Virus record (IMG/VR): IMGVR_UViG_2534681978_000011
Location: 1-5,627 of that record
Length of the DNA: 5,627 nt
Strand: one strand, 5' to 3'
Origin: a virus
Lineage: Duplodnaviria; Heunggongvirae; Uroviricota; Caudoviricetes
Positions 1-5,627 of the stretch are shown here, in pieces. A model generated the notes under the pieces. The model did not search any database and was not told the origin of the DNA. It worked only from the letters and a program-made list of their open reading frames with translations. The translations under genes were made by a program, and so were the position numbers. The first letter of the stretch is position 1; every line of letters starts with the position of its first letter.

Positions 1-23
1 TGCTGGTCAGCTATCAAGTACAG

Positions 24-131
24 TCATAGTCCTACGTACTTGAGCCTACGGAGTCCCTGAGACTGCCAGCGTTCAATCGTCCGCGGGTCCACGTTGAAAA
101 TTTCGGCAAGCCTCTTTTTATTAACCTTCAT
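24..131 (-). pseudogene. nohA: Small terminase subunit (Nu1/NohA-type), N-terminal fragment only; frame closes after 35 codons
   Basis: Minus-strand ATG at 131-129 gives [27 protein letters not shown], matching the N-terminus of NohA/NohB-type small terminases as I recall them (lambda Nu1 begins MEVNKKQLADIF). After about codon 27 the translation (RRLKYVGL, stop at 26-24) no longer resembles terminase. It sits directly downstream of the cos site, as in lambda. Confidence 0.5.
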
Positions 132-149
132 GAAAACAACCCATTATCA

Positions 150-380
150 AATACAAAGGCCCCGACATGAAAACGCCAGAAAAAGGCATTTTCGGACACT
201 TTCATGTCGGACCTTTACGGATGCAATATTAAAAAAAACAAAAAGTTATATTCGAGAAGTACCGACACGATTTTCCCTGAAAAATTTTCATAAATAGTGA
301 AAAACCGCGAGGTCGCCGCCCCGTAACCTGTCGGATCGCCGGAAAGGACCCACCAAAAATGATAATGATTGTCAAATACG
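150..380 (-). other. cos packaging site: cosB R-element inverted repeat (163-173 / 200-210), A/T-rich IHF-like tract (about 228-250), cosN cohesive-end sequence (310-321), cosQ-proximal segment (about 322-376)
   Basis: Minus strand reads ACGGGGCGGCGACCTCGCGGTTTTTCACTATTTATGAAAATTTTTC, near-identical to the lambda left end GGGCGGCGACCTCGCGGGTTTTCGCTATTTATGAAAATTTTCC. The upstream segment GGTCCTTTCCGGCGATCCGACAGGTTACG matches the lambda right end. A perfect 11-bp inverted repeat CCGACATGAAA / TTTCATGTCGG sits between cosN and the terminase ATG, like the lambda R2/R1 elements. Confidence 0.75.
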
Positions 381-446
381 TTTATCACACTGATATTCAG
401 AATCACTACTGAAAGACTCCCTTTGTGGTGCGCGAGGGATGCGCAT

Positions 447-473
447 AAAAAAACCACCAGCAAATGCCAGTGG
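447..473 (-). terminator. Rho-independent terminator downstream of the moron ORF
   Basis: Minus-strand RNA: 8-bp stem CCACUGGC / GCUGGUGG (two G-U pairs), 4-nt loop AUUU, then a run of 7 U (forward A-run 447-453). It lies 61 nt after the stop of the 534-938 ORF. Confidence 0.5.
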
Positions 474-533
474 CTAAAGATATTCATTGCGAATAACCAT
501 CACAAAACAACTTAACTCGTGAGGGTAGAAATT

Positions 534-938
534 TTACTCGAGGCCAAATTTCTTCTTTAAATAGGCCTTCGTTAACTCCAGCCCAACATCTTTGATTGTA
601 CTCAAAGGGGCATCGCTCATTGACTTTAATTTCTCAAAAACCGTAGGTTCATTTAATGCCTGGGCGAATTCTTGTCCCTGCGCAGATAGTCGCACGTCGG
701 TACCCATATCTAGCATATGGCCACAATGGCGCATGTAGCCCAGTTTAGTTATGTCATCCGTTATTAGATCTTTATTACTGATATAACCTTGCTCAATAAG
801 AAGTAGATAATGAAACATCCCTTCATTCGAGCAGATATCGTACCCCGCATTAGCTAAGTCTTTTGTAGATATAAAGGGAGTTTTCGCTTTCAAAAATACC
901 TCAAGCATCCCCTTCATGTATTCTAAATTTTTAACCAC
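534..938 (-). CDS. Hypothetical protein, 134 aa, AT-rich moron; possible winged-helix-like DNA-binding fold (inference only)
   Basis: ORF in the six-frame track. GTG start at 938-936 is preceded by a consensus Shine-Dalgarno (TAAGGAGGT, 5 nt spacing). GC content is visibly lower than the flanking lambda-like genes. Followed by its own terminator (447-473). Segment KTPFISTKDLAN...FHYLLLIEQGYIS resembles a wHTH recognition-helix pattern. No confident family assignment. Confidence 0.7.
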   Translation of the reverse strand: MVKNLEYMKGMLEVFLKAKTPFISTKDLANAGYDICSNEGMFHYLLLIEQGYISNKDLITDDITKLGYMRHCGHMLDMGTDVRLSAQGQEFAQALNEPTVFEKLKSMSDAPLSTIKDVGLELTKAYLKKKFGLE

Positions 939-1073
939 AAAAACCTCCTTAGGATAATTGGAGGTCTAGAATACCGTTTGCAAGCACGTTGATAAATCAT
1001 TATCACAGGCACTCAATGAATGCCTGCTGTAATTGCGTACGGTAATGAACGTAAAAAACCGCCCGAGGTATAT

Positions 1074-1298
1074 TTAGACATTAGATGGCGCTTTGTCAGT
1101 ATAGACCCGGTACGCCCTGACAAACATCCCGTTACATTCAGAGTCCGCCTTGATATACGCCAATTCGTAACCCCGATGCTTTAGCTCTTCACGAGCTCTT
1201 TTCTCTTCCTTAGCCATGAAGTTAAGATCTTTAATTTCTGAGTAGGTATATGTTCCCACTATAAAATCTCTGCCTGGCCGTCCATTTATCAGTTCCAT
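1074..1298 (-). CDS. Hypothetical phage protein, 74 aa
   Basis: The 96-aa track ORF begins at a TTG. The first in-frame ATG (1298-1296) has a strong SD (GGGAGGA, 5 nt upstream), giving MELINGRPGRDFIVGTYTYSEIKDL... No recognisable family. Confidence 0.55.
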   Translation of the reverse strand: MELINGRPGRDFIVGTYTYSEIKDLNFMAKEEKRAREELKHRGYELAYIKADSECNGMFVRAYRVYTDKAPSNV

Positions 1299-1391
1299 GT
1301 GTCCTCCCAAAAAGTTGGTAGTCAGAACATACCATGCTAAGCGAGGTGAAAGCACCTTTATCAAGCCCCCCGCAGATAGACTTTGTAATGG

Positions 1392-1679
1392 CTACTTCTT
1401 CAGAAATGATTCGATGAACTCACGCCGGGGATGACGATAGTTCAGAATATCTTCTGGCATCCTCATAAAGCGGTTGTTGCCGTCTTTGGCAGTAACGAAA
1501 CAGCAGTGAACTCCGCAGACATCCGTTTTGATCGTGTCGCCATACTCAAAAAGCAACTGCGCCATCTTCTCTTGCCATTCTTGCGGCATAGCCTCCATGA
1601 ATACTCTCGGCATCACGCAGAACGACGCATGCGTCAGGCCAAACCACAATTGCAGGTCTTTACGATATTCTTCATCCAT
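1392..1679 (-). CDS. Hypothetical phage protein, 95 aa, Cys-containing (C-x33-C-x3-CC)
   Basis: The 135-aa track ORF begins at a TTG and its N-terminal extension runs through a terminator-like hairpin. The in-frame ATG at 1679-1677 has an AAGG/AGGT SD 8-9 nt upstream, giving MDEEYRKDLQLWFGLTHASFCVMP... Function unknown. Confidence 0.55.
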   Translation of the reverse strand: MDEEYRKDLQLWFGLTHASFCVMPRVFMEAMPQEWQEKMAQLLFEYGDTIKTDVCGVHCCFVTAKDGNNRFMRMPEDILNYRHPRREFIESFLKK

Positions 1680-1696
1680 CGTCTTTACCTTTGTTG

Positions 1697-1723
1697 CAAT
1701 AAAAAGCCCCGCGAATGCGAGGC
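1697..1723 (-). terminator. Candidate rho-independent terminator or RNA hairpin between the spanin region and the 95-aa gene
   Basis: Minus-strand RNA: 7-bp stem GCCUCGC / GCGGGGC (one G-U), loop AUUC, followed by UUUUUAUU. Confidence 0.4.
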
Positions 1724-1758
1724 TAAATCCTGGTGTTTGTGATGAACTGGCTCTTATC

Positions 1759-1911
1759 TCAACGCAGCCCCTTACCGCGCGCCAGATGCTCAACTTCAAG
1801 CATCAGCAATGAGATGTTTAATCTGGATTCACTCCAGAAGTGATCACCACCCTGTCTACAGAGCCAGATGTGAAGGATGATAAGTAAAATTATCGCTATC
1901 ATCGAAGGCAT
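1759..1911 (-). CDS. Candidate small membrane protein, 50 aa (low confidence; may just be the out-of-frame tail of the frameshifted Rz region)
   Basis: ATG at 1911-1909 with AGGA 5 nt upstream. Product MPSMIAIILLIILHIWLCRQGG... has one hydrophobic helix-like segment. It overlaps the reconstructed Rz stop. Confidence 0.2.
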   Translation of the reverse strand: MPSMIAIILLIILHIWLCRQGGDHFWSESRLNISLLMLEVEHLARGKGLR

Positions 1912-2341
1912 TGCGTCCTGATGTATTCCTGAAGCGTTCTCAAACTGCGCGGTTATCCTGTCGATTCCACTTCGGAGACGGTAATAATTGAGTTCAGCAT
2001 CTGCTGTAAGTCTTGGGCTTTCTCCATCGCCCATGCTGCTGGCGTCCGGTCCGTTAGACTTTGCACAGGTGGCGGCGAACTTGCAGGCGCTTACGACCAG
2101 CAGAAACATCAGCACGGAGACTTTCGATAGTCGCATTAGCATCAGCAAGCTCCTTTGTATATCTGGCATCGAGTTCTGCTACGTCACGTTGACGCTTCTG
2201 CATGTCAGCGATGATGGATGTGGCTTTATCTCGCTGCTCTTTGTAGGCGATGGCGTTATCACGGTAATGATTAACAGCCCATAACAGGCAGACGATGATG
2301 CAGATAACCAGAGCGGAGATAATCGCGGTGACTCTGCTCAT
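1899..2341 (-). pseudogene. Rz: Rz inner-membrane spanin (i-spanin), disrupted by two +1 frameshifts in the sequence as given
   Basis: N-terminal 87 aa (frame of the ATG at 2341, [19 protein letters not shown]...AGRKRLQ) closely match lambda Rz, then stop at 2056-2054. The middle segment (ASSMGDGESPRLTADAELNYYRLRSGIDRITAQ, matching lambda ASGVDNAASPRLADTAERDYFTLRERLITMQ) is in the next frame. The C-terminus (LRTLQEYIRTQCLR-stop, matching lambda TQKYINEQCR-stop) is in the third frame, ending at 1901-1899. Removing one nt near 2081-2082 and one near 1942-1944 restores a 146-aa Rz. Confidence 0.75.
1953..2142 (-). pseudogene. Rz1: Rz1 outer-membrane lipoprotein spanin (o-spanin), embedded in Rz, disrupted by the first frameshift
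   Basis: ATG at 2142 with SD AAAGGAG. Signal peptide plus lipobox [20 protein letters not shown] (lambda: MLKLKMMLCVMMLPLVVVGC). The Pro-rich mature part ([19 protein letters not shown]...NSIITVSEVESTG, stop 1955-1953) is in the adjacent frame. The same 1-nt correction near 2081-2082 rejoins both Rz and Rz1. Confidence 0.7.
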
Positions 2342-2814
2342 ACCTCAATCTCTCTGACCGTTCCGCCAGCCTCTTTGAATTTTGCAATCAGGCTGTCAGC
2401 CTTATGCTCGAACTGACCATAACCAGCGCCCGGCAGTGAAGCCCAGATATTGCTGCAACGGTCGATAGCCTGACGGATATCACCGCGATCAATCATCGGT
2501 AAAGCGCCACGCTCTTTAATCTGCTGCAATGCCACAGCGTCCTGGCTTTTGGGAGAGAAATCTTTCAGGCCAAGCTGCTTACGATAGGCATCCCACCAAC
2601 GGGAAAGAAGCTGGTAACGTCCGGCGGCTGTTGATTTGAGTTTGGGGTTTAGCGTGACAAGTTTGCGAGGGTGATCAGAGTAATCAGTGAATAGCTCTCC
2701 GCCTACAATGACGTCATAACCATGATTTCTGGTTTTCTGTCGTCCGTTATCAGTCCCCTCTGACCACGCCAGCATATCGAGGAACGCCTTACGTTGATTA
2801 TTGATTTCCACCAT
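2338..2814 (-). CDS. R: Endolysin R (lambda-type lytic transglycosylase), 158 aa
   Basis: Protein [61 protein letters not shown]... is essentially identical to lambda R as recalled. ATGA overlap with the Rz start. Overlaps the S 3' end as in lambda. Confidence 0.95.
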
Positions 2815-3121
2815 CTTCTACTCCGGCTTTTTTAGCAGCGACGCGTTTGATAAGCGAACCAATCGAGTCAGTGCCGATGTAGCCGATGAACACGCTCGTT
2901 ATATAAGCGAGATTGCTACTTAGTCCGGCGAAGTCGAGAAGGTCACGAATGAACCAGGCGATAATGGCGCACATCGTTGCGTCGATTACTGTTTTTGTAA
3001 ACGCACCGCCATTATATCTGCCGCGAAGGTACGCCATTGCAAACGCAAGGATTGCCCCGATGCCTTGTTCCTTTGCCGCGAGAATGGCGGCTAACAGGTC
3101 ATGTTTTTCTGGCATCTTCAT
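2798..3121 (-). CDS. S: Holin S (lambda class I holin with dual-start motif MKMPEK: S107 antiholin / S105 holin), 107 aa
   Basis: Protein [64 protein letters not shown]... matches lambda S. The GGGGG SD and upstream leader match lambda. Confidence 0.95.
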
Positions 3122-3363
3122 GTCTTACCCCCAATAAGGGGATTTGCTCTATTTAATTAGGAATAAGGTCGATTACTGATAGAACAAATCCAGGCTACTG
3201 TGTTTAGTAATCAGATTTGTTCGTGACCGATATGCACGAGCAAAACGGCATGAGGTTGTTAGCGCAGCCTCTTGCCACCCGCTTTCACGAAGGTCATGTT
3301 TAGAAGGCCGCAGCGTAACTATCACTGATGAATTCAGGATAGCCAGTGGCTACGGCTCAGTTA
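3122..3363 (-). other. Lambda-type late leader upstream of S, including the S translational-control region
   Basis: Minus strand CTGAGCCGTAGCCACTGGCTATCCTGAATTCATCAGTGATAGTTACGCTGCGGCC...GATTACTAAACACAGTAGCCTGGATTTGTTCTATCAGTAATCGACCTTATTCCTAATTAAATAGAGCAAATCCCCTTATTGGGGGTAAGACATGAAGATG closely matches the lambda sequence preceding S as recalled. Confidence 0.7.
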
Positions 3364-3439
3364 TGGTGCTGGTTAACGGACTTGAACCGCTACCCATTCG
3401 CTTACAAGGCGACTGCTCTACCATTGGAGCTAAACCAGC
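3364..3439 (-). tRNA. tRNA-Thr (anticodon UGU), 76 nt including encoded CCA
   Basis: Manual cloverleaf on the minus strand: acceptor GCTGGTT/AACCAGC (7 bp perfect), D-arm GCTC-CAATGGTA-GAGC, anticodon loop CTTGTAA, T-arm AGCGG-TTCAAGT-CCGTT, discriminator A, CCA. Confidence 0.75.
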
Positions 3440-3444
3440 ATGTT

Positions 3445-3519
3445 TGGCGGGACAGCGTGGACTCGAACCACGATAAGAAGGTTAACAGCCTTCCGTAATG
3501 ACCTTTATACGACTGACCC
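3445..3519 (-). tRNA. tRNA-Asn-like (anticodon GUU), 75 nt including encoded CCA
   Basis: Manual cloverleaf on the minus strand: acceptor GGGTCAG/CTGTCCC (6 of 7 pairs, one U-U), D-loop AAAGGTCA, anticodon stem GAAGG/CCTTC with loop CTGTTAA (matches the E. coli tRNA-Asn loop), T-arm CGTGG-TTCGAGT-CCACG, discriminator G, CCA. Confidence 0.65.
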
Positions 3520-3564
3520 AAATAAAAAAGCCACCGTTGCAACTTAAGAGTCACTAACGGCAGC
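3520..3564 (-). terminator. Candidate tR'-like leader terminator immediately downstream of pR'
   Basis: Minus-strand RNA: 9-bp stem GCUGCCGUU / AACGGUGGC (two G-U pairs, so the hairpin is strand-specific), 17-nt loop, followed by UUUUUUAUUU. It ends 1 nt before the tRNA-Asn 5' end. Confidence 0.4.
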
Positions 3565-3574
3565 TTACCTGCTA

Positions 3575-3604
3575 ATTATGGCTAAATGGCTAATTGCATG
3601 TCAA
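3575..3604 (-). promoter_or_regulatory. Late promoter pR'-like sigma-70 promoter (-35 TTGACA, 18-nt spacer, -10 CATAAT), overlapping the last codons of Q
   Basis: Minus strand: TTGACA (3604-3599), 18-nt spacer, CATAAT (3580-3575). The -35 is a perfect consensus, the -10 is 5/6. Position immediately 3' of the Q gene is as expected for a lambdoid late promoter with its Q-utilisation site. Confidence 0.55.
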
Positions 3605-4100
3605 GGCTTTTAACAGCAACATGCTTAACTTTCTCAACACGTTTACGCATTTTGAAAGCATTTTGCATTGGCTGGTACAAAACAAATAACGACGCTTTCA
3701 GGATGTCGTCAATTTCGTTTCTACAGGTTGCCAGTGAAGGTTTTCTCCATCCCTCGCCACCACGTCCACACATCTTGCGTGGCTTTGCAGTCGCGTGATA
3801 GTAGGATGCAATTGCTCGCTTAGATGAACCATGAGCGTAGTAGCTGAGGAGGATGCCAAAGGCTTTCTTGTCAATGTACATGACGGAATCGACGACCTGA
3901 GAAATCAACATTCCATCATCATCATTACACATTGGCCTTGTCATAATTCTTCCCGGCTCTACGCTCTCCATGAACTTCGCTATTACGCTGCTCATGCGCT
4001 TTTCCAGACGACCTGAATAAACCCATGCGCCCCACAGTTCAAGCCAGCCATTCAGCCACTCATGCTGTTCTTTGGTGAGGTTTAGTTCTCTTATGCCCAT
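3582..4100 (-). CDS. Q: Late-gene antiterminator Q (phage-82 / DLP12 QuuD-like family, not lambda-Q type), 172 aa
   Basis: Position between ninI and the late promoter/lysis genes. Motifs [21 protein letters not shown] and [10 protein letters not shown] parallel QuuD-type Q proteins as recalled (LERWGAW, RPQCCDDDAMII, LLVDYYVVG). SD GGGAGAAGG before the ATG at 4100. Confidence 0.8.
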
Positions 4101-4762
4101 GCGCCTTCTCCCTGTACCTGAATCAATGTGAGGTTTCCGCAGAACACTGCTCCGGTATCGATATACATTTGGTTGGCAAATTTAAGTGGTTTCACTGCTG
4201 GCGTATGACCAAAGATGAACGTGTCCGCGCCTTTGATTTCTTTCACGATCCCGTCTTGTGAGTTGCTGATTCGTTCGCGGTTCCAGATTACCTGCTGATG
4301 ATCAACTGGCTTTCCAAACTCGTATTCGTCACAAGGATAATCGGCGTGGCAGATGACATATTTTTTACCTTCGCTCACCAGTTCGATGATTAACGGAAGT
4401 TCATCTGCTTTATGAGCAAGAGCTTTAGCCAGAATTTCTTTGTCGTAATCGAGATTAAAGAACCAGCCACCGCCATTAAGCATCCAGTGATTGACGTTTC
4501 CGCGCTCTGATAAGCCATCAATCATCATTTGCTCATGGTTTCCACGTACAGCTCGGAACCAGGGGAATGTGATTAATTCCAGACATTCGACGTTCTCTGT
4601 ACCGCGATCGACCAAATCGCCAACCGAGATAAGCAGGTCTTTTTTGGTGTCGAATCCTATCGTCTCCAGTTTTTTCATCAGGTTCGTGTAGCATCCGTGC
4701 AGATCGCCAACTACCCAAATATTTCGGTATTTGCTGCCATCAATTTTTTCGTAATAGCGCAT
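4091..4762 (-). CDS. ninI: Ser/Thr protein phosphatase (lambda PPase, NinI / ORF221 homologue), 223 aa
   Basis: From the ATG at 4762 (SD GGAGTGAAAGAG) the protein [29 protein letters not shown]...GNHE... matches lambda phosphatase with the metallophosphatase motifs GDLHG, GDLVDRG and GNHE. The 248-aa track ORF has a 25-codon upstream extension overlapping ninH. Confidence 0.9.
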
Positions 4763-4946
4763 CTCTTTCACTCCATCCGCGATGAACCATGAGAACGTCG
4801 TTGACGATGGCGTGCATTTTCCCGTCTTTATCATCAACGTATTTTCTGACCGTACCGCGACTACATTTCAGTCTGCGTGCTACTTCTGTCTGGTTTCCGT
4901 ATGCTTCAACGAGCATGTCTGGAATGGTTTTTACTGAGAACGTCAT
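4740..4946 (-). CDS. ninH: NinH, 68 aa
   Basis: [68 protein letters not shown] matches lambda NinH. ATGA start/stop overlap with ninG. Confidence 0.9.
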
Positions 4947-5554
4947 GCGGCCTCACTTCTGCTATTTCGCAGGTCTTTGAGTTTCTGCTGATACTCCGCC
5001 TTGATGGCCCTGCACTCTTCGACAGTCCAGCGATGGCGGTTATGGTTTGATTCGATTTCGTCTACTGCTTCCTGCCCGATGCGATTAATCAGTTCGACGC
5101 GATACGGAACGAGATTTCCGCTTTTGTGCTGGTTGCACACCACGCATTGCTTGTGAATATTGCGTTCATCAAATCGGAGTTGAGGTGCCGCAGCAGTTGT
5201 CCGGTAATGTCCGGCATCCCACTGAGCAGACGTGAGCGTTCCGCACGAGATACATGGTAAGTCGCGGTCTCTTTCTCTGATGAAGGCGTTTACGGCTTGT
5301 TGGGCTTGTTTAATCCAGTAACTGCGGGGCTTTAAGGCGAGTTTTCGAATCTTAAGTTTATCTTTCTGTTTCTGCTCCTCTCGTCGTCGTTTCTTCTCTG
5401 CTGCTTTTTCCGCTTTTTCGCGTTCTTTGCTTCGTCGTTCGAGTGCTATCTTGGTTCCACACTCTGGAGAGCACCACCACTGATTAGCGAATGCAGGGTG
5501 AAACCATTCCCGACATTCATCGTTTTTACATCGTCTTCGCGCTGGTTTAGCCAT
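4943..5554 (-). CDS. ninG: NinG (Rap recombination-associated structure-specific endonuclease), 203 aa
   Basis: [50 protein letters not shown]... matches lambda NinG across its length. SD GAGGAAG upstream of the ATG at 5554. Confidence 0.9.
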
Positions 5555-5627
5555 CGTCTTCTTCCTCGTACATTGAGCTATTCGGATCGCTCATCAGTTC
5601 TGCGCAGCAGTGCTCACACACGTGAAC
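5547..5627 (-). CDS. ninF: NinF, 3' partial (N-terminus lies beyond the window end)
   Basis: Minus-strand translation [26 protein letters not shown]-stop matches the lambda NinF C-terminus. Its stop overlaps the ninG start. Confidence 0.7.

Follow-up and report, generated by a model that had tools for sequence, protein, structure and literature searches.

The subject of this study is a 5,627-nt stretch of DNA from a tailed virus (Caudoviricetes; positions 1 to 5,627 of IMG/VR record IMGVR_UViG_2534681978_000011), hereafter the window, which is a lambdoid phage late-early junction with all its genes on the minus strand. Our sequence comparisons show that its segment at 444-1036, which carries a gene for a 134-aa protein, is a self-contained, horizontally exchanged accessory cassette. 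In the reading we favor, at a probability of roughly 45%, the product of this cassette is a winged helix-turn-helix (wHTH) protein, a candidate nucleic-acid-binding regulator or exclusion factor, and the hairpin at the 5' edge of the cassette is an element that punctuates an array of such units. This leader hairpin (995-1036, minus strand), which had been missed in an earlier, sequence-only reading of the window, is the most unusual feature of the segment.

An Exchangeable Accessory Cassette between Lysis and Packaging Genes

The edges of the cassette come from an alignment of five diverged cassettes lying in five different flanking contexts. Similarity among the five begins at window 1035/1036 and stops at 444, right after the T-run of a terminator, which shows a conserved unit bounded at about 444-1036 on the minus strand. 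The extent of 376-1073 given in the sequence-only reading was therefore slightly too wide. Within these edges, the order of parts is hairpin element, short leader, Shine-Dalgarno (SD) sequence, 134-aa gene, and intrinsic terminator. Conservation in the noncoding parts far exceeds that at synonymous sites, with 79% identity in the leader and 86-91% in the 3' untranslated region (3'UTR) plus terminator at a synonymous divergence (dS) of 0.78-0.94, for which we estimate an expected identity at neutral sites of ~46-52% (Jukes-Cantor).

The gene itself (534-938, minus strand) is read from a GTG start codon (936-938), with a 5-nt spacer to the SD sequence AAGGAGG (944-950), which is kept in the cassette alignment. 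This start is supported by the fact that homologues begin at the equivalent residue, with ATG. The ratio of nonsynonymous to synonymous substitution rates (dN/dS) is 0.075-0.089 in comparisons with cassettes whose proteins are 96 and 87% identical, indicating that the open reading frame (ORF) is a real gene under strong purifying selection. The terminator that forms the 3' edge of the cassette (445-475, minus strand) consists of a 10-bp stem (452-475) and a run of seven T residues (445-451), has a folding energy of −13.9 kcal/mol (z −3.3, with 0 of 200 shuffles folding equally well), and is retained in 5/5 of the aligned contexts. Strand, length, start, SD, and dedicated rho-independent terminator are all as the sequence-only reading had it. 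That the gene is lower in GC than its surroundings was correct as well (40.0%, vs. 48.1% in window 1800-5627), but "much lower" was an overstatement. GC content at third codon positions is 0.43 in the 134-aa gene, 0.45 in the adjacent 74-aa ORF, and 0.48-0.51 in R, S, Q, phosphatase, and NinG.

The distribution of the cassette is that of an exchangeable single-gene unit, as had been proposed. The 698-nt segment (376-1073) is present in 49 of 5426 complete Escherichia coli genomes, e.g., O104:H4, the window flanks being present in 5243 of them, and the exact 134-aa protein occurs on ~1000 contigs, on which it is labeled hypothetical throughout. The cassette is found joined to different lysis cassettes and to two types of Nu1 that are only 52% identical, and the sibling phages 4A7, IdasGreatGrand, and HF4s have other genes in the same slot, a variability that the sequence-only reading had suggested looking for. 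Its picture of one inserted gene did not hold, however, because the slot instead houses an array of small cassettes. The Nu1 of one related prophage (L002) begins with what is probably the N terminus of lambda Nu1, and lambda presumably lacks the gene.

Homologues 30-100% identical to the 134-aa protein were located at ~50 phage loci. Wherever the neighbors could be identified, the gene is on the late strand between lysis and packaging genes, and the terminase modules beside it are of at least six types. These comprise lambda-type Nu1/GpA in two variants; Terminase_2 in Citrobacter, E. coli, and Serratia; ParB_N with GpA, as in Yersinia phage vB_YpM_39; HNH with Terminase_4 in Klebsiella; and a Klebsiella small terminase (TerS), with Klebsiella phage ST846-OXA48phi9.2 also among these loci. 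In Aeromonas, the homologue sits between TerS and the large terminase (TerL). A terminator-like GC hairpin with a T-rich tail lies ~10-90 nt after the gene in 16/16 contexts, including that of Aeromonas, as read from the sequences by eye. More distant relatives are found in small integrase-linked islands without terminases, beside DUF2971 or T5orf172 genes, and three others (P0166, P0084, and P0128) were traced to short contigs only.

No conserved partner gene was seen among the homologue loci. The 74-aa gene upstream was considered as a toxin-antitoxin-like partner and rejected, since it accompanies only copies at least 99% identical; the 74-aa ORF of the window is not homologous to the 74-aa gene found at the same place in Citrobacter loci. 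A 3'UTR-derived small RNA was likewise dropped, the 3'UTR hairpin being absent from a 75%-identical cassette (L068); a metagenome scan with the 3'UTR returned 3 near-identical loci. A separate scan, of genome contigs, yielded only 2 loci. A perfect inverted repeat of 11 nt (TGATAATGATT) flanks the cassette at 360-370 (plus strand) and 995-1005 (minus strand). By our estimate it is near chance expectation for AT-rich DNA of 1.5 kb, and the other cassette contexts lack it.

A Family of Covarying Hairpins at Mosaic Junctions

The hairpin at the 5' edge of the cassette (copy 1; 995-1036, minus strand) reads GCAAUUACAG-CAGGCAUUCAUUGAGUGCCUG-UGAUAAUGAUU and matches our covariance model with 54.1 bits and an E-value of 1e-14, the E-values of this model being rough. 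AUUA and UAAU form its lower stem, which a 2x2 internal loop separates from a covarying upper stem, and its RNA folds at −17.2 kcal/mol (z −3.95). A second, degenerate copy (copy 2; 1353-1392, minus strand; 17.7 bits, E-value 8e-4) folds no better than shuffles (z −0.28). It starts right after the stop codon of a 95-aa ORF, and 55 nt separate its end from the 74-aa ORF. The block of similarity that the window shares with L002-type prophages (226-1391) has its limit at the 5' edge of copy 2. The junctions of the window with other contexts, at 1391 and 1035/1036, coincide with the 5' edges of its two hairpin copies.

Copies in other phages define a family with invariant flanks, ATTACAN...YGATAATG, which lie 18 to 30 nt apart and enclose 45 different inner sequences. 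Despite this diversity, 42 of the 45 pair at five or more of the six outer positions, as opposed to 3.9% of shuffled inner sequences, and within every copy one arm matches the other. In a consensus structure computed with RNAalifold, a 2x2 internal loop separates the lower stem, (G)GCAUUA/UAAUGC, from an upper stem of 9 bp, with compensatory changes at 10 of the 16 pairs. The fraction of paired cells in the alignment is 95.7%, vs. 81.4% in shuffles (0 of 500 as high) and 33-50% when the partners are slid against each other, and the covariation score is 0.473 vs. 0.208. Pairing is also strand-biased. In the upper stem, 97.7% of cells pair when the gene-sense strand is read, against 81.5% for the opposite strand, with 68 G-U cells (17%, sense strand) vs. 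4 A-C cells. Together, these alignments show a structured, strand-biased, covarying element at mosaic junctions.

The family is widespread. The loci were gathered by exact-pattern scans, so that canonical copies are over-represented, and many of the contigs are related to one another. At least 118 IMG/VR contigs contain the 29-mer CAGGCATTCAYTGAGTGYCTGYGATAATG, and the full 39-nt element (GGCATTACAG followed by the 29-mer) is found in 16 records of isolated phages, phi80, mEp390, and ZF40 among them, and in 94 E. coli genomes. Sequences on both sides of the canonical element diverge at once. Upstream, a stop codon ends 1 nt ahead of GCATTACAG in 50 of 119 cases; downstream, the next start codon lies at a median of 32 nt past GATAATG (100 occurrences). 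Among 117 copies, 64 upstream and 77 downstream flank types occur in 88 combinations, and in 612 pairs that have only the upstream flank in common, identity stops 0-4 nt past the element. In many contigs, the hairpins form arrays with a spacing of ~311 nt.

The genes joined by the element are diverse. ORFs downstream of canonical copies belong to at least 55 unrelated families, which include HNH endonucleases, BamE-like lipoproteins, DUF551, HolE, Lar, and a TerS, DUF2513 genes such as the one considered here numbering only 3. Upstream genes encode DUF2560 in 35 of 90 cases and Acb2/Tad1 in 7 of 90 (distinct genes), and also Rha. The Acb2/Tad1-type sponge genes, directed against Thoeris and the cyclic oligonucleotide-based antiphage signaling system (CBASS), are part of a hairpin-punctuated array (e.g., L071 4007-4354, minus strand), as are the Lar restriction-alleviation gene and HolE homologues in related phages. 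In well-studied phages, the covariance model finds sense-strand copies at 44298-44339 in phi80 (the only copy in the whole genome), at 38663-38703 and 38856-38897 in HF4s (two in the whole genome), and at 1334-1374 and 1998-2042 in the post-lysis stretch of Sf6, to which the scan of that phage was confined. All of these lie between the lysis genes and the genome end.

Two Klebsiella phages offer a side view of such an exchange. L066 (3903-4405) and L070 (3913-4402) have the upstream DUF2560 gene in common and almost identical hairpin elements, that of L066 differing at two bases, and their DUF2513 proteins are, respectively, 83 and 30% identical to that of the window. The coding region has thus been exchanged, the 5' element before it staying as it was. 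A second inverted repeat (TTGCCATTAC...N...GTAATGGCA) follows the DUF2513 terminator in several P22-like and Citrobacter contexts (L012 5440-5480, L043 about 6420-6470, L046, L047, and L052); where it was scanned with the hairpin covariance model (L012 and L043), no match was obtained at E < 0.05.

Several known elements were considered as identities for the hairpin. A scan of the window against Rfam 15 (E ≤ 0.1) returned two transfer RNAs (tRNAs) only, with no match for the hairpin, and its sequence was found in no searchable paper. It is not an intrinsic terminator, the stem being followed by an invariant GAUAAUG with no U run, and it is not the Sf6 boundary sequence bsq7, a different site that lies inside Rz. 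Compared by eye with consensus sequences, its dyad fits none of the LexA, CRP, Fur, sigma-54, sigma-28, and marbox sites. Integron attC-like sites likewise have conserved inverted ends, a variable center, and single-ORF cassette arrays. However, the matching arms of each hairpin copy speak against crossovers being frequent at mid-site, as the attC-like reading would have it.

Candidate Roles of the Hairpin

An RNA processing signal, a recombination linker, and a promoter are the candidate roles for the hairpin. Our own, tentative proposal, which we hold to be plausible though short of probable, is that the hairpins form an undescribed family in the post-lysis array of many temperate enterobacterial phages, serving both as a signal on the late RNA and as a homology linker for cargo swaps. 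On the late transcript, the element would act in the processing or stability of the RNA or in the uncoupling of cistrons. On the DNA, it would be a linker where Red/RecT-type recombination could swap cargo genes, a role that we propose because the canonical copy is identical over ~38 nt.

The main alternative is that the element at 995-1036 is simply the promoter of the cassette, composed of an extended −10 and an operator dyad, with neither an RNA nor a linker role. The 3' half of copy 1 does read as an extended −10 (TGTGATAAT, 999-1007) that is conserved across cassettes. Moreover, conservation in the family stops exactly at GATAATG, at the distance from the next start codon given above, and a near-perfect dyad can be read from the sequence at −34 to −14 relative to that −10. 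The dyad GCATTCAyTGAGTGC, used in a search for operator sites, occurs once within the window. We nevertheless consider a plain promoter/operator rather doubtful, since covariation, variable spacing, and strand bias in the alignments all argue against it as the sole role of the element. The stem varies freely with compensatory changes, which the operator of a single protein would not tolerate, and the distance between the conserved flanks is not constant. The excess of G-U over A-C cells and the better pairing of the sense strand likewise speak against it. In addition, there is no usable −35, and a Citrobacter locus has a separate and much better promoter after the element.

How does the hairpin relate to known systems? 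T4-type phages have PeSL promoter/stem-loop mobile regulatory cassettes, and phage T7 has intergenic RNase III hairpins. Like PeSL, the hairpin is a short intergenic stem-loop with a promoter-like box, flanking variable small ORFs in a hyperplastic region; like the T7 RNase III sites, it lies between cistrons of a long phage transcript and its helix is interrupted by an internal loop. It differs from both in its occurrence in temperate phages (lambdoid, P22-like, and Klebsiella), in its sequence, and in a helix of only ~16 bp. Like the "boundary sequences" or linkers proposed for lambdoid mosaicism (Susskind and Botstein; Clark et al. 2001, as cited in PMC3029335), the hairpin is short, conserved, and located exactly at mosaic junctions. 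A covarying, strand-biased structure and confinement to one region, both of which the hairpin has, are not part of that concept. We could not find a description of this variant of a boundary, which differs from each of the compared systems in sequence, confinement, or covariation.

The hairpin matters more than the gene it precedes. Whether lambdoid mosaics arise by recombination at short conserved linkers or by random illegitimate joining has long been debated. The hairpin sits exactly at dozens of junctions, where it joins many upstream and downstream modules, and its covariation, strand bias, and confinement are independent evidence of function. If our proposal is right, the family would be a concrete case in which the boundary-sequence model of phage mosaicism could be tested, and the DUF2513 gene of the window would be one of more than 50 cargos of the system. 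Since the element is present in the well-studied phages phi80 and Sf6, its roles are directly testable.

The 134-aa Protein Is a Divergent Member of the DUF2513 Family

The sequence-only reading could not assign the 134-aa protein to a family. A profile search, which it had recommended, shows that the protein is assignable: it matches PHROG 585, a family of unknown function, with an E-value of 3e-31, and aligns over its full length (129 columns) with DUF2513-matching relatives in hhalign, with a probability of 99.85% and an E-value of 1.5e-30. Iterated and exhaustive HMMER searches gathered ~218 clusters of relatives, mostly of 130-146 aa. The Pfam model of DUF2513, PF10711, which has a gathering score of 29.6 bits, is matched by 25 of 49 closer and 54 of 76 distant relatives (best E-value 9e-15), but not by the window protein at E ≤ 0.1. 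Scanned singly, relatives score 17-25 bits against PF10711, with the exception of P0195 at 34.2 bits, and a search of Pfam as a whole gave no credible match for the window protein, just two sub-threshold chance matches. Because the protein has no PF10711 match of its own and its close relatives fall below the gathering threshold, we place it in a divergent enterobacterial-phage branch. By these profile comparisons, it is a divergent DUF2513/PHROG 585 member, of a family that is itself uncharacterized.

With the DUF2513, PHROG 585, and YjcQ-like phage proteins, the window protein shares its length (~130-146 aa) and two motifs, FH...(D/E)QG(F/Y)I in the recognition helix and RLT..G..F..AL after the wing. 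The AlphaFold model, of high confidence (predicted local distance difference test score, pLDDT, 95.6), agrees with the winged-helix-like fold that had been guessed from the sequence. It has a wHTH at residues 1-85 (helices 5-16, 25-30, and 38-49, and strands 68-84) and three C-terminal helices at 86-130 (86-96, 98-105, and 112-130). The invariant residues are H43, G67, R83, L84, G88, F91, L95, and P111. The protein is mildly acidic, with an isoelectric point (pI) of 5.9, and its recognition helix contains neither Lys nor Arg. The assignment of the coding sequence as a DUF2513-related winged-helix protein draws on the PHROG match, the profile comparison, the AlphaFold model, and dN/dS.

Structural searches were less informative. 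PDB sequence searches with two profiles gave no credible solved relative, and Foldseek against PDB and BFVD returned generic wHTH matches only (E > 0.01; query TM-score, TMq, ≤ 0.44), with no full-length structural match. The predicted fold is that of MarR, PadR, HxlR, and TubR. The window protein differs from these in lacking basic residues in its recognition helix, and it has no Pfam MarR or PadR match, i.e., it does not belong to those families by sequence. It is not a TerS either, having no TerS match and adjoining a bona fide TerS (Nu1 in the window); TerS genes (phrog_370/phrog_51) also lie beside homologues in Aeromonas and Serratia. No match was found in PADLOC-DB 2.0 at E ≤ 0.1. The literature on DUF2513, WP_000240372, phrog_585, and YjcQ yielded nothing useful.

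A few relatives are fusions. A full DUF2513 module is the N-terminal domain of P0166, a CAP12/Pycsar-type TIR protein of 278 aa (TIR E-value 7.7e-21), for which the sole contig found is 2 kb long. In P0198 (378 aa), the module precedes a weak DUF4062 match and, in P0195 (254 aa), a C-terminal domain of unknown nature.

Expression of the Cassette

A candidate sigma-70 promoter lies between hairpin and gene (968-995, minus strand), with TTATCA as −35 (990-995), a 16-nt spacer, and TATTCT as −10 (968-973). Both hexamers are invariant across the five diverged cassettes and the spacer and downstream leader vary, which suggests a promoter-like pattern. It is a candidate only, as its consensus match is weak (8/12, under the scan threshold). 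A Citrobacter homologue has the candidate promoter TTAGCA-17-TGATATAAT.

The Q-antiterminated late transcript would pass every terminator and cover the 134-aa gene, so that the protein would be made late by read-through. Its weak promoter may also express the gene in the lysogen, perhaps at a low level, where the terminator would keep transcription out of the terminase genes. We infer some autonomous transcription because a conserved terminator is hard to explain under Q-modified polymerase alone.

The gene can be compared with classical morons, using the definition in PMC3594210, which expects some autonomous transcription (see also PMC2629481). Like lambda bor, HK97 gene 15, and phi80 cor, it is an extra late-operon gene absent from siblings, with a different GC content and its own terminator, and its slot is that of bor in lambda. 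The latter gene is oriented opposite to the late operon, and the 134-aa gene is co-oriented with it. Further differences are that the predicted product, with its winged helix, is cytoplasmic and neither a lipoprotein nor a membrane protein, that the promoter is a candidate one, and that it is a unit of an array separated by a conserved hairpin. The gene is one more moron, a new member of DUF2513, and by itself an ordinary find. It places DUF2513/PHROG 585 in a defined, exchangeable prophage slot beside anti-defense genes, which makes it a reasonable candidate to include in screens for phage-host conflict.

What the 134-aa Protein Might Do

In the reading we favor, the 134-aa protein would be dispensable for lysis and packaging and would work as a regulator or exclusion-type factor. 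It would be an accessory factor, small and probably a dimer, that binds nucleic acid, with contacts likely made by the invariant His43 (recognition helix), Arg83 (wing), and a conserved cluster of Lys residues at the C terminus. Several observations weigh against it. A recognition helix lacking basic residues and a pI of 5.9 are unusual for a sequence-specific DNA binder, and we found no experiment or annotation that gives any DUF2513 protein a function. No sense-strand promoter reaches the scan threshold, and promoter-like scores upstream of homologues are barely above those of shuffles (mean 8.6 vs. 7.8). The Aeromonas homologue, which has just 33 nt upstream, may be a purely late gene. Finally, the strict place of the gene beside terminase genes also fits a packaging-related role.

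Three other roles each have some contextual support. A late protein associated with packaging could assist or modulate terminase, for instance through contact with TerS or with DNA near cos or pac, and would be expressed from the late transcript only. A precedent exists in HK97 gp74, an HNH protein encoded at the genome end that is needed for cos cleavage. This would account for the late-strand position just upstream of the packaging genes in every phage context, across the different terminase types and down to 30% identity, and for the homologue between TerS and TerL in Aeromonas. It is hard to reconcile with the absence of the gene from phages that have the same Nu1/A (49 of 5426 genomes against near-universal flanks), with the unrelated cargo families carried in the same slot, with the more distant relatives in small nonphage islands where no terminase is nearby, and with the terminator, for which a purely late gene has no use. 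Nor is there a TerS-like match by sequence or among the top fold-search matches. We consider it the most improbable of the three.

The fusions bring immunity into view. As a counter-defense factor, the stand-alone DUF2513 module would mimic or titrate a sensor domain of host immunity, or bind a signal or nucleic acid that the latter needs. The module stands N-terminal to the TIR of P0166 and is weakly fused to DUF4062 in P0198, the array of related phages holds the Acb2/Tad1-type sponge genes and Lar, and the alleles of L066 and L070, 30% identical behind the same promoter and in the same slot, follow a pattern common for arms-race genes. We still rate this as unlikely: fusions are rare (a handful among the 150 relatives listed), a place in the late operon is late for an anti-defense role, and a dN/dS of 0.08 gives no sign of diversifying selection among close relatives. 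The converse, a prophage-encoded anti-phage defense or superinfection-exclusion factor acting alone, would agree with the moron architecture, the terminator after the gene in homologue contexts, and the prophage accessory slot, and also with the TIR-effector fusions of domain relatives and the integrase-associated islands in which distant relatives neighbor DUF2971 or T5orf172 genes. It fares a little worse in our judgment, given the lack of a PADLOC match, an effector domain, and a conserved partner gene.

Layout of the Window

The remaining features, all on the minus strand, follow a lambdoid plan. From the distal end, they are NinG (4943-5554), a NinH-like ORF and then a Ser/Thr phosphatase (both between NinG and Q), Q (3582-4100), tRNA-Asn (GTT) and tRNA-Thr (TGT) between Q and the holin gene (3364-3519), holin (2798-3121), endolysin (2338-2814), and Rz/Rz1 (about 1759-2341), with holin, endolysin, and Rz together spanning 2054-3121. 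The 134-aa gene does lie between the lysis cassette and cos, as the sequence-only reading stated, but two accessory ORFs intervene after Rz, one of 95 aa (1392-1679) and one of 74 aa that belongs to PHROG 6100, a family without an assigned function (1074-1298). Just downstream of the cassette, the genome end is marked by the cosN cohesive-end 12-mer (310-321), an exact match to lambda GGGCGGCGACCT for which 0 matches are expected by chance, followed by a Nu1-type small terminase that starts at 131 and runs downward. The whole window is present in no complete E. coli genome, and it is therefore itself a mosaic.

NCBIfam and PADLOC searches of the three accessory ORFs (95, 74, and 134 aa) gave no matches. 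Relative to phage HF4s, to which it is ~94% identical, the Rz frame (window 1690-2345, minus strand) has five extra bases in four places (alignment columns 267, 290-291, 302, and 411). Due to these, the i-spanin ORF ends after 95 aa and the ORF in the Rz1 frame extends to 136 aa. This could reflect a decaying prophage or sequencing errors. The separate 95-aa ORF at 1392-1679, which would have 135 aa if an upstream TTG were taken as its start (1392-1799, minus strand), aligns solely to the C-terminal half of PHROG 3527 (positions 121-230 of 233) and may be what is left of a longer gene after truncation. Just upstream of its likely start lies an intrinsic terminator (1705-1724).

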